A stretch of DNA of 64,000 nucleotides from a phage, in assembly GCA_025677605.1 (NCBI GenBank), contig GCA_025677605.1_4110.1. One strand, given 5' to 3'. A program made the position numbers and the translations under genes. This document shows positions 1,237 through 7,224 of this stretch, in pieces. The number at the start of each line of letters is the position of its first letter. The first letter of the stretch is position 1. Below the pieces are notes generated by a model, which worked only from the letters and a program-made list of their open reading frames with translations, was not told the origin of the DNA and did no database searches.

Positions 1237-2847
1237 TTATCCGTTTATATTTCTCCAGCTACCATCAACCAAAATTTGTATAAATTTATAATTCACACCA
1301 CCAATGTTATCAGCAGAGTTTTTACCAACATCTTGTACATTTATACCACTTAGTACTGCACCTGATGGACACACAAAGTGCCATGATAACTCATTACCAC
1401 CCGGCCAATAATAATCTTGATTGAAAAAACGTACATCTTGTACTGATCCGACAGATATATTTACATTACCGTCAGAACCAGCAGTTGAGCCGTTAACAGA
1501 ACGTACTATATGTTTCGTTCCGACAGTTGCTGATGCTGCGTTAACTGTTAATGAACCTGGAATATACAAAGAACCACCACTGTTAACTGTTACAGCACCA
1601 CCACCAGCACGAAGTCTTAGTTCATTACCTTGGAAGTATACTGCTGCACGTTCACCACCACTAGCGTTCTGGAAGAATAAGTACAAATCACCACCACCAC
1701 GAATACCAGCACGGTTAGCAATGTATAATTCACCAGACATTGTATCACCAGTTTTACGAACAAAACGATCATTTGCAGTATTTTCGCTCATCGCAACAGA
1801 TGGTTCGGAAATGTTATACAAAATTGCAGTGTTAAAGTGTGGTACGTCAATACCTGTTACTGTATGGTTATGGGTTATTGTGCGTGCATTCGCATCATCA
1901 TAAATTGGTTGTGAAGTTGATAATGCAGTTGCTGCATTGTTACCATCTACACTAAACTCCATACGGGCATTCTTATCACCAAAGATTGCAGGACCACGAT
2001 AGCCTCTACCATCATTCCATGCTCTACCACTAATGAAAACAGCATCATCCGCATCACTACCGTTAGTACCTAACATTTTACCAGTACCGTGAATATGATC
2101 AGGTATTGTGAAAGTACTAGGTGTTAATGAACCACCACCTGCTATCATTGCGTCAGTTTTGGTAATACCACTAGTTGTTATACTTCTTAAATATCCATCA
2201 CGGTTCAAGTTTGGTACTTGTTTCTTTATTGGACCATTAGTTCCTACCCATTCCCACCACATACCATCAGCAAAACACCAACCATCAGATGTTTTCCACG
2301 GTTTTGCCTGTGTGCCTTCTCTTCCATTCTGTCCACCAGTACTACCCGACATTTGTTCACGTATACTATCAACTGTTTGTCCAGATGTCAAGCTATAATG
2401 CATAATACATCCAGGTTTAGCACTCGTGTACAAACCATTAGCACCTTGAATTGATGAAGGTGTTGGGAATATAATATTCAATGTAGTTCCGCTAATAGAA
2501 GCAGTTGGAATTGATGACATTGAATAGGTTACTCTATCAACCTTAGTTCCAAGTATAGAATTGATATCCTGAATCTGTTGTTCAATTGGTGCAACTACAT
2601 CGGCAGCACTTAACATTTCAATCCAGTTAGTACCATCATGATACTTCAAAGTAAGAGTGTTTTTGTCAAATACTATCGCCCCTGCTTCACCAACAGGCAA
2701 ATCCTGAACAGGTAGTATTACCGATGAAGAATTCATTCTAATTGGTCGAGGATTAGTTGGTGTACCACCTAGTACTATTAGATTCAATGAACCATTTTCC
2801 GCAGTACTGGTTACAGTATTCTGTGGATGATTAAAACTTATGCTCAT
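1237..2847 (-). CDS. Tail fibre protein with phage tail-collar-like domain
   Basis: 536 aa; Gly/Ser/Thr-rich; segment PWKTSDGWCFADGMWWEW...VPNLNRDGYLRS matches the tail-collar pattern (GWxxCDG ... LPDLRG); late-promoter-like element upstream. Confidence 0.55.
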   Translation of the reverse strand: MSISFNHPQNTVTSTAENGSLNLIVLGGTPTNPRPIRMNSSSVILPVQDLPVGEAGAIVFDKNTLTLKYHDGTNWIEMLSAADVVAPIEQQIQDINSILGTKVDRVTYSMSSIPTASISGTTLNIIFPTPSSIQGANGLYTSAKPGCIMHYSLTSGQTVDSIREQMSGSTGGQNGREGTQAKPWKTSDGWCFADGMWWEWVGTNGPIKKQVPNLNRDGYLRSITTSGITKTDAMIAGGGSLTPSTFTIPDHIHGTGKMLGTNGSDADDAVFISGRAWNDGRGYRGPAIFGDKNARMEFSVDGNNAATALSTSQPIYDDANARTITHNHTVTGIDVPHFNTAILYNISEPSVAMSENTANDRFVRKTGDTMSGELYIANRAGIRGGGDLYLFFQNASGGERAAVYFQGNELRLRAGGGAVTVNSGGSLYIPGSLTVNAASATVGTKHIVRSVNGSTAGSDGNVNISVGSVQDVRFFNQDYYWPGGNELSWHFVCPSGAVLSGINVQDVGKNSADNIGGVNYKFIQILVDGSWRNING

Positions 2848-2878
2848 GTAAAAATCCTTTTTTGTTTAATATATATCA

Positions 2879-2886
2879 TATTTATA
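2879..2886 (-). promoter_or_regulatory. Candidate late promoter (TATAAATA on minus strand) for fibre gene
   Basis: Plus strand TATTTATA about 32 nt upstream of the 2847 start codon. Confidence 0.4.
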
Positions 2887-2887
2887 T

Positions 2888-3196
2888 CTATAGTAAATCA
2901 TTTTCCATATCATCCAATACGGAATCAATAATATTTGCAGCTAACTTTTTAGGCATCTTGAACCATTCAGAGTTAGGTTGCCTTGTTGCATTCATTTGCT
3001 TTAATCTCTTATGCACTTCCTTTTCTGCTGTTCGTGCATCGTCAAACATAACCTGATGGTATACCTCAAAATCCCTGAATGGTGAAGCAGTCTGGTAAAC
3101 ACCTAAACGCTCTTTCATCTCTGATTTTGTAGTGAAGCCTATCTTTACATATTCAGGCCATGCACTATTAGTGATTACATAACATATTTGTGACAT
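2888..3196 (-). CDS. T5orf172 / GIY-YIG-like domain protein (stand-alone, 102 aa)
   Basis: CYVITNSAWPEYVKIGFT...ERL...SPF...EVYHQVMFDDARTAEKEVHKRL...SEWF matches the GIY-YIG-like T5orf172 pattern (IYxxxN, KIGxT, R, E..H, EWF). Confidence 0.6.
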   Translation of the reverse strand: MSQICYVITNSAWPEYVKIGFTTKSEMKERLGVYQTASPFRDFEVYHQVMFDDARTAEKEVHKRLKQMNATRQPNSEWFKMPKKLAANIIDSVLDDMENDLL

Positions 3197-3226
3197 AGAT
3201 ATCTCCTAGTATGGAGATATTTATTA

Positions 3227-3577
3227 TTAACTAATTCTGAAGTTTACACCCGCATCTATCAGGCGTTGAAATGGATTTTGAGGATCAAACTCGGATGGGG
3301 TTTTAGGAGTGTTCAGTACTGGAGCATCAGCATGTAACTTCGACATGCGTTCTTTGTATTTGTCAATATATTCTTCATACAACATGTCTTCTGAATCAGT
3401 ACTCAATATATCTTCTATAAAATGATCAGTACTGTAATCCAGACGATCATCATTGTAATACAACGTCTCCGTAGCCTCATCATAACCCACCAACGTTCCA
3501 TAAGGAACATTGATCTCAATTTTTGAGTACTGACTCTTTAAGTACTCTTCTTTTTTAAAAATGTATACAGTTAACAT
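3227..3577 (-). CDS. Hypothetical acidic protein
   Basis: 116-aa ORF, same strand and tight spacing with neighbours; no recognisable motif. Confidence 0.4.
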   Translation of the reverse strand: MLTVYIFKKEEYLKSQYSKIEINVPYGTLVGYDEATETLYYNDDRLDYSTDHFIEDILSTDSEDMLYEEYIDKYKERMSKLHADAPVLNTPKTPSEFDPQNPFQRLIDAGVNFRIS

Positions 3578-3601
3578 AGTGAAAGCTTCCCTGCTTAGTG
3601 T

Positions 3602-4708
3602 TTATTCAAATGTATTTACAATCTCCAGTACTGTTTCAAGATACTTAGCATCAAAAGTTTCTGTGAATCCTGATGGCAACTCTTCAGTAGTTACTACACC
3701 ACTATCAATGTATTGTTTCAAAAACTTTTCCAGTACTAAGGGTTTATGACCATCTTCAAAGTAACGTTCTACCAGTACAGTGTGTTCAAAATCAGAATGA
3801 CGACTTTGCTCATTTACACGGCGTTTCATATCGCCAGTGATTCCATACTTGTACACTGTCTTATCTTTATTAGTTAGTTTTTGAACATAGAAATATCCAG
3901 GTTTTGATGGCTGATATCCATATTCACCACATGATGGGCATCCTTTACCAGCCATATGTGCTTTTGGTTGTTGGGAGAAAACACCATGAGTTGGACATAC
4001 AATATCAACATAATTCTCGCTTATAGTATATTCAACCAAACTATAATCATACTTATGGTTATGGATAGGTGATACCAGTTCAATGAAACGTTCAGTACTG
4101 CGACCACCTTTACCGGAGCATGTACCACAACCAGTCTTACCAACAAGTAAAGTTTTCGGATCAACTGTCCATTCATGGTTACCCGCTTTACAATACACAG
4201 TTACTTTAGTTTTTTGATTTACATATACTGTGTTAGTTAAATCTAATGAATCACCATAATTTTCTTTTACTTTTTCTACGAATTCTTCAGTACTGTATGC
4301 TTCATTTTTATTACATATAGGACATCCCTTACCAGTAAGAAATTTGTTTGGTGTAATTTCAAAGTAATCGTTATGTTCTTCGTCTGTACAGAGTATTGTT
4401 ACTTTTGTTATAGCGTTAATGTAATTTAGTTTATCAAATTTGAATTTATCTTTTCCAAATTTAGTTTCTACCGTGCTGATAAATTTTTCGTTGTTCGAAC
4501 GCTGTGACATGTTTGAATAACATGAAGAACATGTACATGAAATGTGACGTAGTGCAGGTTTAGTATTTTCTTTTCCGCATTTATTACATTTAACTGTTGT
4601 CTTACTGGCTTTGAATACTAAAGTGCTGAAATCAAATTCACCATATGCTCCATACTTGTTGTTCATCTCTTCAATGAATTTTTCTTTGTCGATACTTACT
4701 TTTGGCAT
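3602..4708 (-). CDS. Zinc-ribbon repeat protein with C-terminal GIY-YIG/T5orf172-like domain (possible homing-endonuclease-like or DNA-binding protein)
   Basis: Repeated units F..G(K)GCP.C (FLTGKGCPICN, LLVGKTGCGTCSGKG, HMAGKGCPSCG) plus CNKCG...CTCSSC; C-terminus GYFYVQKLTNKDKTVYKYGITGDMKRRVNEQSR resembles GIY-YIG/T5orf172; own consensus sigma70 promoter. Confidence 0.5.
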   Translation of the reverse strand: MPKVSIDKEKFIEEMNNKYGAYGEFDFSTLVFKASKTTVKCNKCGKENTKPALRHISCTCSSCYSNMSQRSNNEKFISTVETKFGKDKFKFDKLNYINAITKVTILCTDEEHNDYFEITPNKFLTGKGCPICNKNEAYSTEEFVEKVKENYGDSLDLTNTVYVNQKTKVTVYCKAGNHEWTVDPKTLLVGKTGCGTCSGKGGRSTERFIELVSPIHNHKYDYSLVEYTISENYVDIVCPTHGVFSQQPKAHMAGKGCPSCGEYGYQPSKPGYFYVQKLTNKDKTVYKYGITGDMKRRVNEQSRHSDFEHTVLVERYFEDGHKPLVLEKFLKQYIDSGVVTTEELPSGFTETFDAKYLETVLEIVNTFE

Positions 4709-4743
4709 TTTATTTGTCTCTTTGTGATTTTTGGTATGTGGTA

Positions 4744-4772
4744 ATTATATATAATTAAAATCTACTTGTCAA
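4744..4772 (-). promoter_or_regulatory. Consensus sigma70-type promoter (TTGACA-17-TATAAT) driving gene 3602..4708
   Basis: Minus-strand reading: TTGACA agtagattttaattata TATAAT, about 30 nt upstream of the start codon with AAAGAGA RBS. Confidence 0.6.
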
Positions 4773-4783
4773 GCTTTTTTTCT

Positions 4784-4814
4784 GAAAAAAAGAAAAGGGA
4801 CTCCGAAGAGTCCC
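4784..4814 (-). terminator. Rho-independent terminator after major capsid gene
   Basis: Minus-strand RNA: GGGACUC-UUCG-GAGUCCC (7-bp stem, UUCG loop) followed by CUUUUCUUUUUUU. Confidence 0.6.
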
Positions 4815-4837
4815 TAGTATATTTAAATTCTTTATTA

Positions 4838-6013
4838 TTACATGAAAGTAACGTTTTTGATAGCGATTTTGCTGTAGTAGTCCGCAGCGTTACCTAGTGA
4901 ACTGGTGCTATCGGTCAACTGAACATACCCGTATCTGGTTAAGAAAGTTGTAACGAGTTCTCCAGTGTTAGGGTCCATAACAGTACCAGATGCCATTAGT
5001 GGGATGTATGGGCAATAGAATACACCAGCATCAGTTTCTGCATTACCTTTATAACCAATTAGAATATCTTCTACGTCACTTGCGTAGGTATCAACAAAGA
5101 TACGCATGGTGCTGTTTAGAGTACCAACGAATTTAACGTTAGTTGGTGCTTCAAAAGTACCTTCAGTAGTACGTGCAAAGCTAGAAGTAGTTGCAGATTG
5201 TAGAATAGTTAGAGCGGTTGGGGAAACAACAGCCCAGTTCGCAGCACCACGTTTGGTACGACGAGCAACTTCGTTCGCTTGACGGTTGATTAGGGTAGCT
5301 AGAGCAGCGTGCTCATCACCAACGAAAGTAGCAACACCAGTTACTTTAGATTGGTCATAAGTTACAGCAGCAGCACCTGGTAGAGCACGTAGACGGCTTA
5401 GTAGTTCTTGGTCGATTTCAACGGTAACTTCTTGTGCGATAGCAGCCATTAGTTCAGCTTCAACGTCGATACCATGTTGAGATTGTGCATCTTGTGCAGA
5501 TTCAACAGTCCAGCGTGCAGATAGACGACGAGATTTCGCTTCAACAGTTTCACGTAGGATACGGATGTTAACGCGACGACCCATAGTACCTTCTAGTTGG
5601 CTAGTAGGAGCAGCTTGTGGGTTGCTGTTGTCAGAGTTTAGCTCACCAGTGTAAGATTTAGCAATCTTGAATGGAGATAGCATTTCTTCGCCAGCTACAA
5701 CACCTGGTGCGTTGTCAGCGTATTGAACACGTAGAGTGTGGATTTGACCAACTGGGCCAGTCATTGGTTGAACACCGATGATTTCGTTAGCGATAACGGT
5801 TGGCATTACACGACGCATAATTGGTAGAATCACTTTGTTTAGAGTAGCGATGTTACCAGCAGAAGTTGCACCAGCGGTTGCAGATTCTTGTAGCATAACT
5901 TTACGATGGTTATCAAGAACGGTTTCCATTACGGATTTACGAGTACCTTGAAGACCTTCAACTAGTTTCTCTTTAACTGCTACCCATTTGGATTCATTTA
6001 GTAGTTGTGACAT
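4838..6013 (-). CDS. Major capsid protein (T4 gp23-like fold)
   Basis: LPIMRRVMPTVIANEIIGVQPMTGPVGQIHTLRVQY matches the conserved gp23/gp24 segment (…RR.IPNLIAFDICGVQPM..P.GQ…LR..Y, from memory); sits after scaffold and protease in canonical order; strong RBS. Confidence 0.85.
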   Translation of the reverse strand: MSQLLNESKWVAVKEKLVEGLQGTRKSVMETVLDNHRKVMLQESATAGATSAGNIATLNKVILPIMRRVMPTVIANEIIGVQPMTGPVGQIHTLRVQYADNAPGVVAGEEMLSPFKIAKSYTGELNSDNSNPQAAPTSQLEGTMGRRVNIRILRETVEAKSRRLSARWTVESAQDAQSQHGIDVEAELMAAIAQEVTVEIDQELLSRLRALPGAAAVTYDQSKVTGVATFVGDEHAALATLINRQANEVARRTKRGAANWAVVSPTALTILQSATTSSFARTTEGTFEAPTNVKFVGTLNSTMRIFVDTYASDVEDILIGYKGNAETDAGVFYCPYIPLMASGTVMDPNTGELVTTFLTRYGYVQLTDSTSSLGNAADYYSKIAIKNVTFM

Positions 6014-6059
6014 TATATTATCTCCTTAAAGATGTTATATTCGTTTTTCAGTATGTTAT

Positions 6060-6067
6060 TATTTATG
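6060..6067 (-). promoter_or_regulatory. Candidate late promoter (CATAAATA on minus strand) for capsid gene
   Basis: ccATAAATAata about 47 nt upstream of the start codon; part of an element shared with 8799-8890. Confidence 0.4.
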
Positions 6068-6105
6068 GTACTGAAAAAATTGATTATTAAAATGCTTTAA
6101 AATGT

Positions 6106-7224
6106 TTATTTTTTATTGATACCAGAAAGAACGTCGAGTTCTTTTAGGAATGCCATATCGTCAGCGGTCATTTCTTCGCTTTCAACAATAGCCTGACGGT
6201 TGCCAGTGATTACTTTACCTTCTGCTAGGGTTGTTTTCTTCGCTGAAGGTTGAACTGCTTGACGAGTGGTAGCAGATTCATTTACTTTAGTACCGTTAAG
6301 TACAGACTTATGGTACTTGCTGAAATCTTCTTTAAGCTTTTCTGTTGGAGAAGCAGCTAGAAGGGATTCCATAATTTGTTTTTGTTGACTAGTCAAAGGC
6401 TTAACCAATTCAGACATAATTGCATTGCGTGCCTGTGTATCTTCCATGATACGTAGTTTTGATTGAACTTCTTTAACTGCGTTAACAGATTCATTTAGTT
6501 CTTGTTTAACTTGAGCAATCTCATCTTCTTTAGATTTGATTGATTCAGTCAAAGAACGAAGTAGTGAATTCTCATTAAATTGTTTGGTATTAAATTCTTG
6601 AGCAAATGCTTCAAAGATTTTACGACCGAACATATTTTGTTTAGCTTCAGCAAGATCTTGTTTCAAAGCGTAAAGATTTTTCTGAGTGGTTTCTGCAATA
6701 TATTTAGCAGCACTTTCAGAGGTACGTTTGATAAAGTTATTACGTGCTTCTGCAATTTGACGAGAACCTTCAGCAAGTAGTTTTACACGAGCTTCTACTA
6801 GTTGACGTTTTTCGCTGTGGAATTCTTTTAGTTCTTCAGCTAGGATACCGTTAGAGAAATTAACGAATTTACCGAGGCTTTCTTGAACTAGTTTACGTTC
6901 GTTACGCATTTGTTTAACTTCTTCAGCTAGTACTGAATTAGCGAATTCAGAGAAGTTACCAAGAGTTTTACGGAGGGTAACGCGGTCTTCAACGAGACGT
7001 TTTTTCTCGTCATATACTGCACCCATTTCTTCAGCGATAACTTGAGTAACCATAGTGTTAAGACCTTCTGTTAGTTCAGCTAGGTCTTGTTTATAACGGC
7101 CTTTCATTTCTTCACGCATTTCAGCGGCTAGTGTGTTCTTTTCTTCATTCCATGCTTCCTGAATTAGCTGTTTTGCTTCATCAGAAAGAGATGATTCTTT
7201 TAGAAGCTTTTCTAATTTAGACAT
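6106..7224 (-). CDS. Prohead scaffolding protein (gp22-like)
   Basis: 372 aa, strongly alpha-helical / coiled-coil composition (E,K,L,A,Q-rich), located between protease and capsid genes. Confidence 0.6.
   Translation of the reverse strand: MSKLEKLLKESSLSDEAKQLIQEAWNEEKNTLAAEMREEMKGRYKQDLAELTEGLNTMVTQVIAEEMGAVYDEKKRLVEDRVTLRKTLGNFSEFANSVLAEEVKQMRNERKLVQESLGKFVNFSNGILAEELKEFHSEKRQLVEARVKLLAEGSRQIAEARNNFIKRTSESAAKYIAETTQKNLYALKQDLAEAKQNMFGRKIFEAFAQEFNTKQFNENSLLRSLTESIKSKEDEIAQVKQELNESVNAVKEVQSKLRIMEDTQARNAIMSELVKPLTSQQKQIMESLLAASPTEKLKEDFSKYHKSVLNGTKVNESATTRQAVQPSAKKTTLAEGKVITGNRQAIVESEEMTADDMAFLKELDVLSGINKK

Follow-up and report, generated by a model that had tools for sequence, protein, structure and literature searches.

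The region downstream of the major capsid gene of Escherichia phage A4 raises the question of whether the genes found there are selfish homing elements or genes kept for a function in the phage. Phage T4 has segD between its genes 23 and 24. A reading of the A4 DNA from its letters (here called the sequence-only reading) had proposed that a 368-aa gene is a seg-like selfish insertion between conserved late genes, paired with a second inserted gene of 102 aa, while allowing that the T5orf172 domain might be non-nucleolytic. The window analyzed here is the whole 64-kb stretch of DNA that contains this locus; it matches, at 99.8%, the genome of A4, an Asteriusvirus jumbo phage of 355 kb.

Layout of the capsid-to-tail-fiber region

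All features of the capsid-to-tail-fiber region lie on the minus strand, at the positions that the sequence-only reading had given, and are as follows.

1237 to 2847, minus strand: tail-fiber gene (PHROG 13229 at 2e-212)
2888 to 3196, minus strand: ORF102 (A4_13), 102 aa, a stand-alone T5orf172 domain protein
3227 to 3577, minus strand: ORF116 (A4_12), 116 aa (phrog_15724), downstream flank of the slot
3578 to 4785, minus strand: mobile cassette, comprising promoter, ribosome binding site (RBS), ORF368, and a 24-nt spacer with the ORF116 RBS
3602 to 4708, minus strand: ORF368 (A4_11), 368 aa (PHROG 681 at 1e-76)
3605 to 3907, minus strand: T5orf172 (GIY-YIG-fold) nuclease domain of ORF368, C-terminal, about aa 268 to 368
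3911 to 4690, minus strand: four tandem zinc-finger modules of ORF368, ~65 aa each, about aa 7 to 266, a putative DNA-recognition array
4744 to 4772, minus strand: predicted sigma-70-type promoter, TTGACA-17-TATAAT, inside the cassette
4786 to 4815, minus strand: intrinsic terminator of the capsid gene, with an 8-bp stem at 4796 to 4815 followed by a T-tract
4838 to 6013, minus strand: gp23-like major capsid gene A4_10 (Pfam Gp23, 5e-90; deposited annotation)

The perfect host-type promoter reported directly after the capsid terminator was confirmed: it agrees with the consensus at 12 of 12 positions and is the sole exact TTGACA-17-TATAAT match in the window, promoter function being read from the consensus match alone. 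The same sequence is present, unchanged, in the cassette of phage BF17. Other cassette variants have predicted promoters with 10 to 11 of 12 matches or with an extended −10 element, and at the slot in empty Asteriusvirus alleles the best promoter-like match reaches just 8 of 12. The predicted promoter is part of the mobile cassette. The capsid terminator is kept in filled and empty alleles and forms the upstream edge of the cassette. A scan of positions 2500 to 6200 predicted no terminator from the cassette promoter down to position 2500, already within the tail-fiber gene, so the tail-fiber gene is probably co-transcribed with the genes upstream of it.

As the sequence-only reading had remarked, gp24 does not occupy the post-capsid position, and no gp24-like capsid paralogue was found anywhere in the 64-kb window. 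Relatives with an empty slot also lack gp24; its absence is a trait of the lineage and not a result of the insertion. Searches of the window for further copies of ORF368 or ORF102 returned none.

Zinc fingers and nuclease domain of ORF368

The N-terminal part of ORF368, in which at least three zinc-ribbon-like repeats had been noticed, proved to contain four. Three are marked by the motifs FLTGKGCPIC, LLVGKTGCGTC, and HMAGKGCPSC, and these are preceded by an N-terminal CxxC...CxCxxC pattern that constitutes unit 1. Units 2 to 4 follow the pattern C-x2-4-H-x15-16-CxxC, and their Cys residues are invariant among 46 homologues. Two Pfam families scored just below their cutoffs (DUF4379, 23.9 versus 24.5; DUF723, 19.1 versus 20.9), and DUF723 is precomputed for every listed ORF368 homologue. 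The finger module is also found in HNH- and Vsr-type nucleases. Although such an N terminus had been called unusual, zinc-finger repeats are the norm for the T5orf172 homing endonuclease class: CapR/DUF723/DUF4379 fingers occur in 87% of its members, frequently in multiple copies (Barth, Dunham & Seed 2023, PMC10448857).

The C-terminal domain was examined for residues expected of a nuclease. Y274, K287, G289, R297, and E327 are invariant in the 46 homologues, and R297 and E327 correspond in alignment to R30 and E58 in the ORF102 family. The putative catalytic Glu would be the counterpart of I-TevI E75 and, judged from motif position, of Odn E180. In the AlphaFold model of ORF368 (mean pLDDT, 86) the nuclease domain has the GIY-YIG fold, and dN/dS values of 0.10 to 0.24 indicate purifying selection. 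The A4 protein scores under the Pfam T5orf172 cutoff too. The GIY-YIG profile PF01541 matched neither ORF368 nor ORF102 at E ≤ 0.1, a PDB sequence search with both proteins gave no meaningful match, and an NCBIfam search gave no matches. At the YIG position both proteins read K-x-G (K287/G289 in ORF368; K18/G20 in ORF102), the Tyr of this second motif being replaced by Lys, and the helix-1 His/Tyr position is Q301 in ORF368 and Y34 in ORF102. The two proteins share only the fold with canonical GIY-YIG homing endonucleases.

In the literature searched, Odn (ICP1 gp88) is the sole T5orf172 nuclease with biochemistry and a mapped target, and its equivalent Glu is needed for DNA cleavage (PMC8263062). 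Because the catalytic Arg and Glu are invariant in ORF368, a non-nucleolytic role for its T5orf172 domain, as the sequence-only reading had entertained, is unlikely.

A polymorphic slot between the capsid gene and ORF116

Synteny with relatives was compared, as the sequence-only reading had advised, and the ORF368 site showed both presence/absence and replacement polymorphism among close relatives. The four-finger cassette fills the slot in A4, BF17, 121Q, and EJP2, and three-finger variants fill it in G17, EC.P1, and Munch. JNE01 and SHEFM2K have a T5orf172 gene at just 26 to 30% identity, ph0011 and UE-S1 have an unrelated gene encoding a DUF7487/REase-like protein of 532 to 552 aa, and in GAP32 a 77-aa relic of the C terminus is left. 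No insert is present in PBECO4, fEgEco12, SD-6_S16, Yersinia phage fHe-Yen9-04, and Erwinia phage pEa_SNUABM_50; PBECO4 and fEgEco12 align to A4 solely outside positions 3578 to 4785. Between 121Q and PBECO4 the difference is a clean indel (1,194 bp in place of 46 bp) bounded by the terminator T-tract on one side and by the ORF116 ATG on the other. At the empty junction, the comparison of empty and filled alleles yielded just a TAAATACA-like similarity that is short and unconvincing, and therefore no target is proposed.

Sequence divergence is concentrated around the slot. Over 8.7 kb, 121Q and PBECO4 differ by 0 to 1% in most 200-bp windows and by up to 4% inside the tail-fiber gene, and the divergence is 6.5 to 11.5% within ~600 bp downstream and ~400 bp upstream of the slot. 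Comparisons with G17 also showed this zone to be mosaic (three pairwise comparisons). The capsid gene is the conserved upstream flank, and its final ~400 nt fall within this recombination/co-conversion zone, as seen from SNP clustering among relatives. A4 and BF17 have cassettes that are 96 to 99% identical, with identities of 83% in ORF116, 77% in ORF102, and 53 to 67% in the tail fiber. Between 121Q and G17, the flank and the adjoining nuclease half of the gene are 97.6% identical, and the fingers and promoters cannot be aligned. The divergence around the slot is patterned as a co-conversion tract would be. Ordinary recombination at a hot spot, with no nuclease-made break, could also produce flank mosaicism.

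These observations make it probable, in our judgment, that ORF368 belongs to the T5orf172 class of free-standing homing endonuclease genes, as a selfish cassette of an already described type. It combines a nuclease domain, the catalytic Arg and Glu, fingers, polymorphism, and a co-conversion pattern, and the slot polymorphism and co-conversion-like flanks lend support to the seg-like insertion first proposed for this gene. ORF368 would move as a 1.2-kb cassette with its own sigma-70 promoter, so that host RNA polymerase could transcribe it without relying on the late capsid transcript, presumably early in infection. Its four finger modules would form a "beads-on-a-string" array that reads a long DNA site, and when a relative with no insert, or a different one, between its capsid terminator and ORF116 infects the same cell, the C-terminal T5orf172 domain would cut that relative's genome. 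Repair of the break by recombination, with the cassette-bearing genome as template, would transfer the cassette along with a few hundred bases on its flanks (capsid gene, ORF116, and ORF102).

Described systems share much of this organization. N-terminal fingers with a C-terminal T5orf172 domain are found in ICP1 gp165, gp174, and tcgB and in T5-like, Plateaulakevirus, and VpaJT-like enzymes, and this class also resembles ORF368 in its capsid-proximal sites beside essential genes, in the shuffling of finger modules between alleles, and in its association with recombination boundaries (PMC10448857). ORF368 is 31% identical to tcgB over aa 215 to 367. The lineage to which its host phage belongs, the Asteriusvirus jumbo coliphages, is not treated in that study (PMC10448857). 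The ORF368 finger units are of C-H-C-C type (C-x2-4-H-x15-16-CxxC), whereas the reported CapR motif is CxxC...CxC. Two further differences from the described class are that the cassette brings a perfect sigma-70 promoter and that one slot at the A4 locus has received at least three unrelated nuclease-gene families. With T4 Seg proteins and I-TevI, ORF368 shares a free-standing gene between conserved late genes, the GIY-YIG fold, the beads-on-a-string organization, and co-conversion of flanking markers, for which the evidence in ORF368 is one of pattern. Unlike them, it lacks a PF01541 match and has Lys in place of the YIG Tyr, its nuclease domain is C-terminal rather than N-terminal, and it has a zinc-finger array where they have a zinc finger plus helix-turn-helix/NUMOD modules.

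The fingers invite a different explanation, in which ORF368 is a domesticated CapR-like regulator that represses or tunes the capsid or tail-fiber genes and has a catalytically silent T5orf172 domain. The gene directly adjoins the capsid gene, its fingers are CapR/DUF723-like, and CapR itself, a repressor of a phage capsid operon, originated from the fingers of T5orf172 endonucleases (PMC10448857); in addition, neither the canonical YIG Tyr nor the helix-1 His/Tyr is present. However, Odn, an active nuclease, likewise lacks the helix-1 His/Tyr (PMC8263062). CapR has no nuclease domain, whereas ORF368 has kept one under purifying selection, with Y274, K287, R297, and E327 unchanged throughout the homologues, which sets it apart from the finger-only repressor class. 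Moreover, healthy close relatives are without the gene or have unrelated genes instead, and such dispensability is not expected of a regulator of essential late genes. We regard a regulatory role as highly improbable.

Nearly as improbable is that ORF368 serves mainly as an Odn-like weapon against satellites or unrelated superinfecting phages, the polymorphism then reflecting arms-race turnover. Like ORF368, Odn has a T5orf172 domain with conserved Arg and Glu and a helix 1 without His/Tyr, and it is modular, with a catalytic domain fused to a sequence-specific DNA-binding domain (putative in ORF368). A swap of the DNA-binding module can turn T5orf172 nucleases against parasites, as in Odn (PMC8263062, PMC10448857), and the finger array is swapped between ORF368 alleles with a common nuclease half; the neighboring ORF102 matches the candidate defense models PDC-S57 and PD-Lambda-1 at the domain level. 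But the module of Odn is a RepA_N replication-initiator domain directed at a satellite replication origin, while the zinc fingers of ORF368 are of the usual homing-endonuclease type, and no satellite-like target is known for these phages. In genomes that are otherwise almost identical, the divergence tracts center precisely on the point of insertion, which fits cutting and repair there in relatives (homing or marker exclusion). The evolutionary pattern of ORF368 thus points to cutting of relatives at its own locus.

With ORF368 read as a homing endonuclease, the main consequence is a correction of annotation: A4_11, deposited as a "hypothetical protein," can be relabeled as a homing endonuclease of the T5orf172 class. 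The A4 locus does not alter what is currently understood about homing endonucleases. For this class, which is poorly characterized, the locus offers a clean natural allele series (empty, filled, finger-swapped, replaced, and decayed) in genomes otherwise up to 99% identical, so the cleavage site is experimentally tractable. T5orf172 homing elements here bring their own predicted host-type promoters, and the elements at this locus leave the terminal part of an essential capsid gene, beside host-range genes, mosaic in sequence. Such mosaicism bears on comparing or engineering jumbo coliphages for therapy.

ORF102 and ORF116, the downstream neighbors

Of the proposed pair of inserted genes, the 368-aa gene is mobile and the 102-aa gene is not. 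The latter does encode the stand-alone T5orf172 protein that had been recognized two genes downstream (PF10544, 49 bits versus a cutoff of 20, with residues 4 to 92 on profile positions 2 to 99 of 101). However, ORF102 is single-copy at ≥60% identity in 63 records and syntenic at every locus retrieved from Asteriusvirus-type, Mimasvirus, and Eneladusvirus phages (at least three genera). Such conserved presence in relatives is what the sequence-only reading had itself named as refuting mobility, and it argues against a recent insertion of ORF102. ORF116 is likewise single-copy and syntenic in these 63 close relatives. ORF102 is thus fixed in the Asteriusvirus/Mimasvirus/Eneladusvirus clade and lies outside the mobile cassette. 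It is missing just in RaK2, a more distant phage that has an unrelated 244-aa ORF at this position; this ORF (ORF097) was considered as a longer homologue and rejected, having no similarity.

ORF102 consists of the 102-aa domain alone, without a sequence-specific DNA-binding module, and it shows no presence/absence polymorphism of the kind expected of a homing endonuclease. T4 EndoII/DenA, bacterial UPF0213/YhbQ, and the catalytic domain of SLX1 also have one GIY-YIG-fold domain and no separate domain for DNA binding, but by sequence ORF102 is T5orf172 and belongs to none of those families. Its small size, its absence from RaK2 with an unrelated ORF in its place, and the genuine relic in the neighboring slot of GAP32 might suggest that ORF102 has no function and is what is left, in decay, of an old homing endonuclease after loss of the DNA-binding part. 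This is very unlikely: 63 phage genomes and some 30 metagenomic clusters keep an intact frame of 100 to 109 aa, dN/dS is about 0.06 (strong purifying selection; saturation at synonymous sites is frequent), none of the putative active-site residues varies, and the structural model is a confident, compact GIY-YIG-like fold. Most likely, ORF102 is a nuclease domain that was acquired anciently and is now retained for some phage function.

A broader proposal, which we put forward as speculative and rather unlikely, is that ORF102 with ORF116 is a domesticated, clade-fixed nuclease with a core function, and that the adjacent slot is an engine recombining the capsid end and the tail-fiber module. The core function could be, for example, EndoII-like nicking of host or competitor DNA, or ORF102 could be a catalytic subunit recruited in trans. 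On this view at least three nuclease-gene families, each with its own promoter, would have entered the slot independently, using it as a landing pad, and the tail-fiber module being shuffled is the one for host range.

Matches of ORF102 to the two PADLOC defense models are domain-level only, and it was not adopted as a defense system. A split homing endonuclease formed by ORF116, as a degenerate DNA-binding half, and ORF102 was also rejected: ORF116 does not resemble the finger array (hhalign probability, 0.2%) and has no Cys/His pattern. ORF116 is a conserved acidic protein with a dN/dS of 0.13 and is present in RaK2 too.

Contents of the capsid-gene slot

The window corresponds to part of Escherichia phage A4 (ON286972.1, an Asteriusvirus of 355 kb), with a match of 99.8%, and all genes of this locus lie on the minus strand. 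The terminator, promoter, finger motifs, and T5orf172 genes described in the sequence-only reading were all found in the window.

Features of the A4 capsid-gene locus (window coordinates)
Upstream of the capsid gene, minus: gp21-like protease, then scaffold protein
4838-6013, minus: gp23-like capsid gene
4796-4815, minus: capsid-gene terminator, 8-bp stem, then T-tract
3602-4708, minus: ORF368 (A4_11), deposited as "hypothetical protein"
3227-3577, minus: ORF116 (A4_12)
2888-3196, minus: ORF102 (A4_13), deposited as "T5orf172 domain-containing protein"
1237-2847, minus: tail-fibre gene, followed by two tail-fibre assembly genes

Between the capsid terminator and ORF116 lies a variable slot, whose contents differ among relatives. 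Counted by match spans, with annotation confirming some only, the A4-type allele occurs in ∼12 phages, the three-finger allele in ∼10, and an empty slot in ∼7.

Slot contents among relatives
Four-finger alleles (61-97% amino acid identity): A4, BF17, 121Q, EJP2
Three-finger alleles: G17, EC.P1, Munch
T5orf172 gene only 26-30% identical: JNE01, SHEFM2K
Unrelated DUF7487 plus restriction-endonuclease-like gene, 532-552 aa: ph0011, UE-S1
77-aa relic of the C-terminal part of a T5orf172 gene: GAP32
Empty: PBECO4, fEgEco12, SD-6_S16, Yersinia fHe-Yen9-04, Erwinia pEa_SNUABM_50

The DUF7487 gene of ph0011 (locus L007, 4001-5599) and UE-S1 (L014, 2382-4040) is a third, unrelated occupant; with its weak REase_MTES_1575 (PD-(D/E)XK-like) match and weak Mom-like C terminus, it presumably represents another nuclease family at the same landing site. 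GAP32_251 (77 aa; L009, 3756-3989) matches the C-terminal ∼52 residues of the T5orf172 endonucleases (47% identity to the JNE01 type, 37% to A4); it is a decayed relic occupying this slot, an instance of the decay stage of the homing cycle.

No gp24-like capsid paralogue is present within the window, in agreement with the earlier remark that none follows the capsid gene. The capsid gene leads directly to ORF116, ORF102, and the tail fibre in empty-slot relatives as well; the absence of gp24 is a lineage feature unrelated to the insertion.

Sequence mosaicism around the slot

Over 8.7 kb, 121Q (filled) and PBECO4 (empty) share ∼98-99% identity. In exact replacement of 46 bp of PBECO4, 121Q has 1,194 bp between the terminator T-tract and the ATG of ORF116; the A4 equivalent of this cassette is window 3578-4785. 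Divergence between the two is 0-1% in most 200-bp windows and up to 4% in a tail-fibre-gene patch, but rises on both sides of the slot: to 6.5-10.5% in the three downstream windows, spanning ORF116 and half of ORF102, and to 7.5-11.5% in the two upstream windows, spanning the terminator and the final ∼330 nt of capsid-gene sequence. Comparisons of G17 with PBECO4 and of 121Q with G17 were mosaic in the same ∼1-kb zone. Between A4 and BF17, cassette identity is 96% for the ORF and 99% for the promoter region, versus 83% for ORF116, 77% for ORF102, and 53-67% for the tail fibre; identity decays within the 3' end of the endonuclease gene, locating a recombination junction there. Finally, 121Q and G17 share 97.6% identity over the flank and the nuclease half of the gene, while the finger and promoter half is unalignable: a swap of the DNA-binding module. 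Flank divergence, cassette transfer, and module swap together form the pattern that repeated homing, co-conversion, and module shuffling would leave.

Pairwise dN/dS was 0.10 to 0.24 for the endonuclease gene; ORF102, ORF116, and the capsid gene had medians of 0.06, 0.13, and 0.11. These low values indicate that both nuclease genes are maintained as functional proteins and that ORF102 is not a relic. The two T5orf172 genes had been read as a pair of insertions of a typically selfish type. Synteny comparison with relatives, the check proposed with that reading, upheld this for ORF368, with its polymorphic slot and mosaic flanks, but not for ORF102, which is conserved in place: ORF116 and ORF102 are single copy and syntenic in every Asteriusvirus-type, Mimasvirus, and Eneladusvirus locus examined. 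In the phage collection, ORF102 was found at ≥60% identity in 63 records and ORF116 in 71. We consider it likely that ORF368 is an active or recently active free-standing homing endonuclease of the T5orf172 class. ORF102 is a clade-fixed stand-alone T5orf172 domain. The exception, the more distant RaK2, has a slot T5orf172 endonuclease and an ORF116 homologue and lacks ORF102; an unrelated 244-aa ORF with no Pfam match, ORF097 (L017, 4923-5657), occupies that position, indicating that it too is variable at deeper evolutionary distance.

Several side observations concern these families. A second ORF368-like place was found by tblastn in the A4 genome outside the window, and PBECO4, with its empty capsid slot, carries a partial homologue annotated "endonuclease" at ∼174.8 kb; the family is therefore multicopy in these genomes. 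ORF102 has domain-level matches to the candidate anti-phage defence models PDC-S57 (3.6e-16) and PD-Lambda-1 (3.6e-4), and small T5orf172 genes 32-41% identical to it adjoin tRNA-Lys genes in T5-like phages.

Zinc fingers and nuclease domains

The ORF368 finger motifs (FLTGKGCPIC, LLVGKTGCGTC, and HMAGKGCPSC) belong to a tandem array of four ∼65-aa units whose pattern is xEKF(I/V)..V...YG...(Y/F)D(Y/F)....Y....KV.V.C..H..F...P...L.GKGCP.C. Unit 1 has CxxC where the others have C-x2-4-H, and the Cys residues of units 2 to 4 are invariant (46 homologues). The Pfam profiles DUF4379 ("probable treble clef zinc finger"), DUF723, and T5orf172 each matched slightly under the cutoff; PHROG 681, "endonuclease," covers residues 24-367 (1e-76), and an HNH-endonuclease PHROG matches as well, over the finger region alone. 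RefSeq already labels 121Q orthologues "endonuclease" and "GIY-YIG nuclease family protein."

Barth, Dunham & Seed 2023 described homing endonucleases with a T5orf172 domain from ICP1 and from T5-like, Plateaulakevirus, and VpaJT-like phages, with domain shuffling and association with genetic-exchange boundaries; in their data set, 31% lie in capsid-gene neighbourhoods, and 87% have zinc fingers of the CapR/DUF723/DUF4379 type, in many cases more than one ("class V repeat proteins") (PMC10448857). ORF368 is of the same type, with zinc fingers and a capsid-gene neighbourhood, and is directly similar to ICP1 tcgB, a "putative homing endonuclease." Its N terminus, previously called unusual, is therefore typical of the class. 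Asteriusvirus and jumbo phages are not mentioned in PMC10448857, and the literature searched does not describe this capsid-ORF116 slot.

AlphaFold gave confident models of ORF368 (pLDDT 86, and a pTM of 0.37 that is normal for a beads-on-a-string protein) and ORF102 (pLDDT 88, pTM 0.78; clear T5orf172/MUG113 domain, 49 bits). The ORF368 C terminus and ORF102 share a beta-beta-alpha-beta-alpha-alpha fold. Structural matches had modest scores but were consistent: EF2693, I-TevI, and PD-T4-3 rank lower for both proteins, and AtGRXS16-N, Eco29kI, UvrC, and T4 EndoII matched ORF368 only. Invariant residues of the ORF368 family (Y274, K287, G289, R297, and E327) and the ORF102 family (Y6, K18, G20, R30, Y34, and E58) are in register in a profile-profile alignment, placing Lys at the second Tyr of the canonical YIG in both. 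The helix-1 His/Tyr is missing in ORF368, as in Odn (ICP1 gp88), a T5orf172 protein in which mutation of the homologous Glu abolishes DNA cleavage in vitro and in vivo (PMC8263062). Given these conserved active-site residues and the Glu requirement in Odn, the suggestion that the T5orf172 domain may be non-nucleolytic is not favoured.

Promoters and the tail-fibre end of the locus

The promoter TTGACA-17-TATAAT (4772..4744, minus; 12/12) is the sole exact match in 64 kb. Because filled/empty homology ends directly after the terminator T-tract, it is part of the cassette. Empty Asteriusvirus alleles reach at best 8/12, and other cassette types bring their own predicted promoter.

Predicted promoters of other slot alleles
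121Q cassette: TTTACA-17-TATAAT
G17 cassette: TTGACA-17-AATAAT
ph0011 slot: TTGACA-18-TATGCT
EC.P1 cassette: extended -10 (TGGTATAAT)
EJP2 and Munch: -35 (TTGACG) made by the terminator loop itself

Activity and timing of these promoters are putative. No terminator was predicted between the cassette promoter and position 2500 (in the tail-fibre gene, the limit of the scan), so transcription probably continues through ORF116 and ORF102 and on into the tail-fibre gene.

In EJP2 (L005, ∼5951-6048) and Munch (L012, ∼3013-3127), the capsid terminator loop is TTGACG, not TTCG; with TATAAT 17 nt downstream, it forms an 11/12 sigma-70 promoter overlapping the hairpin, so that terminator and promoter share bases upstream of the endonuclease gene. 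Empty-slot Eneladusvirus alleles (L010/L011) carry the extended -10 TGGTATAAT ∼15 nt upstream of the ORF116-like start, directly upstream of the ribosome binding site; this is possibly a resident promoter that serves ORF116, ORF102, and the tail-fibre genes.

A4 has two tail-fibre assembly/chaperone paralogues downstream of its tail-fibre gene (80-640 and 778-1233, minus; both PHROG 136), versus one in 121Q, PBECO4, and G17. In the tail-fibre gene itself, the promoter-distal part that encodes the C terminus (∼1237-2150) hardly aligns with relatives: identity to BF17 is 53%, and against 121Q and PBECO4 just one 66%-identical patch remains. This part looks like a swapped host-range module.
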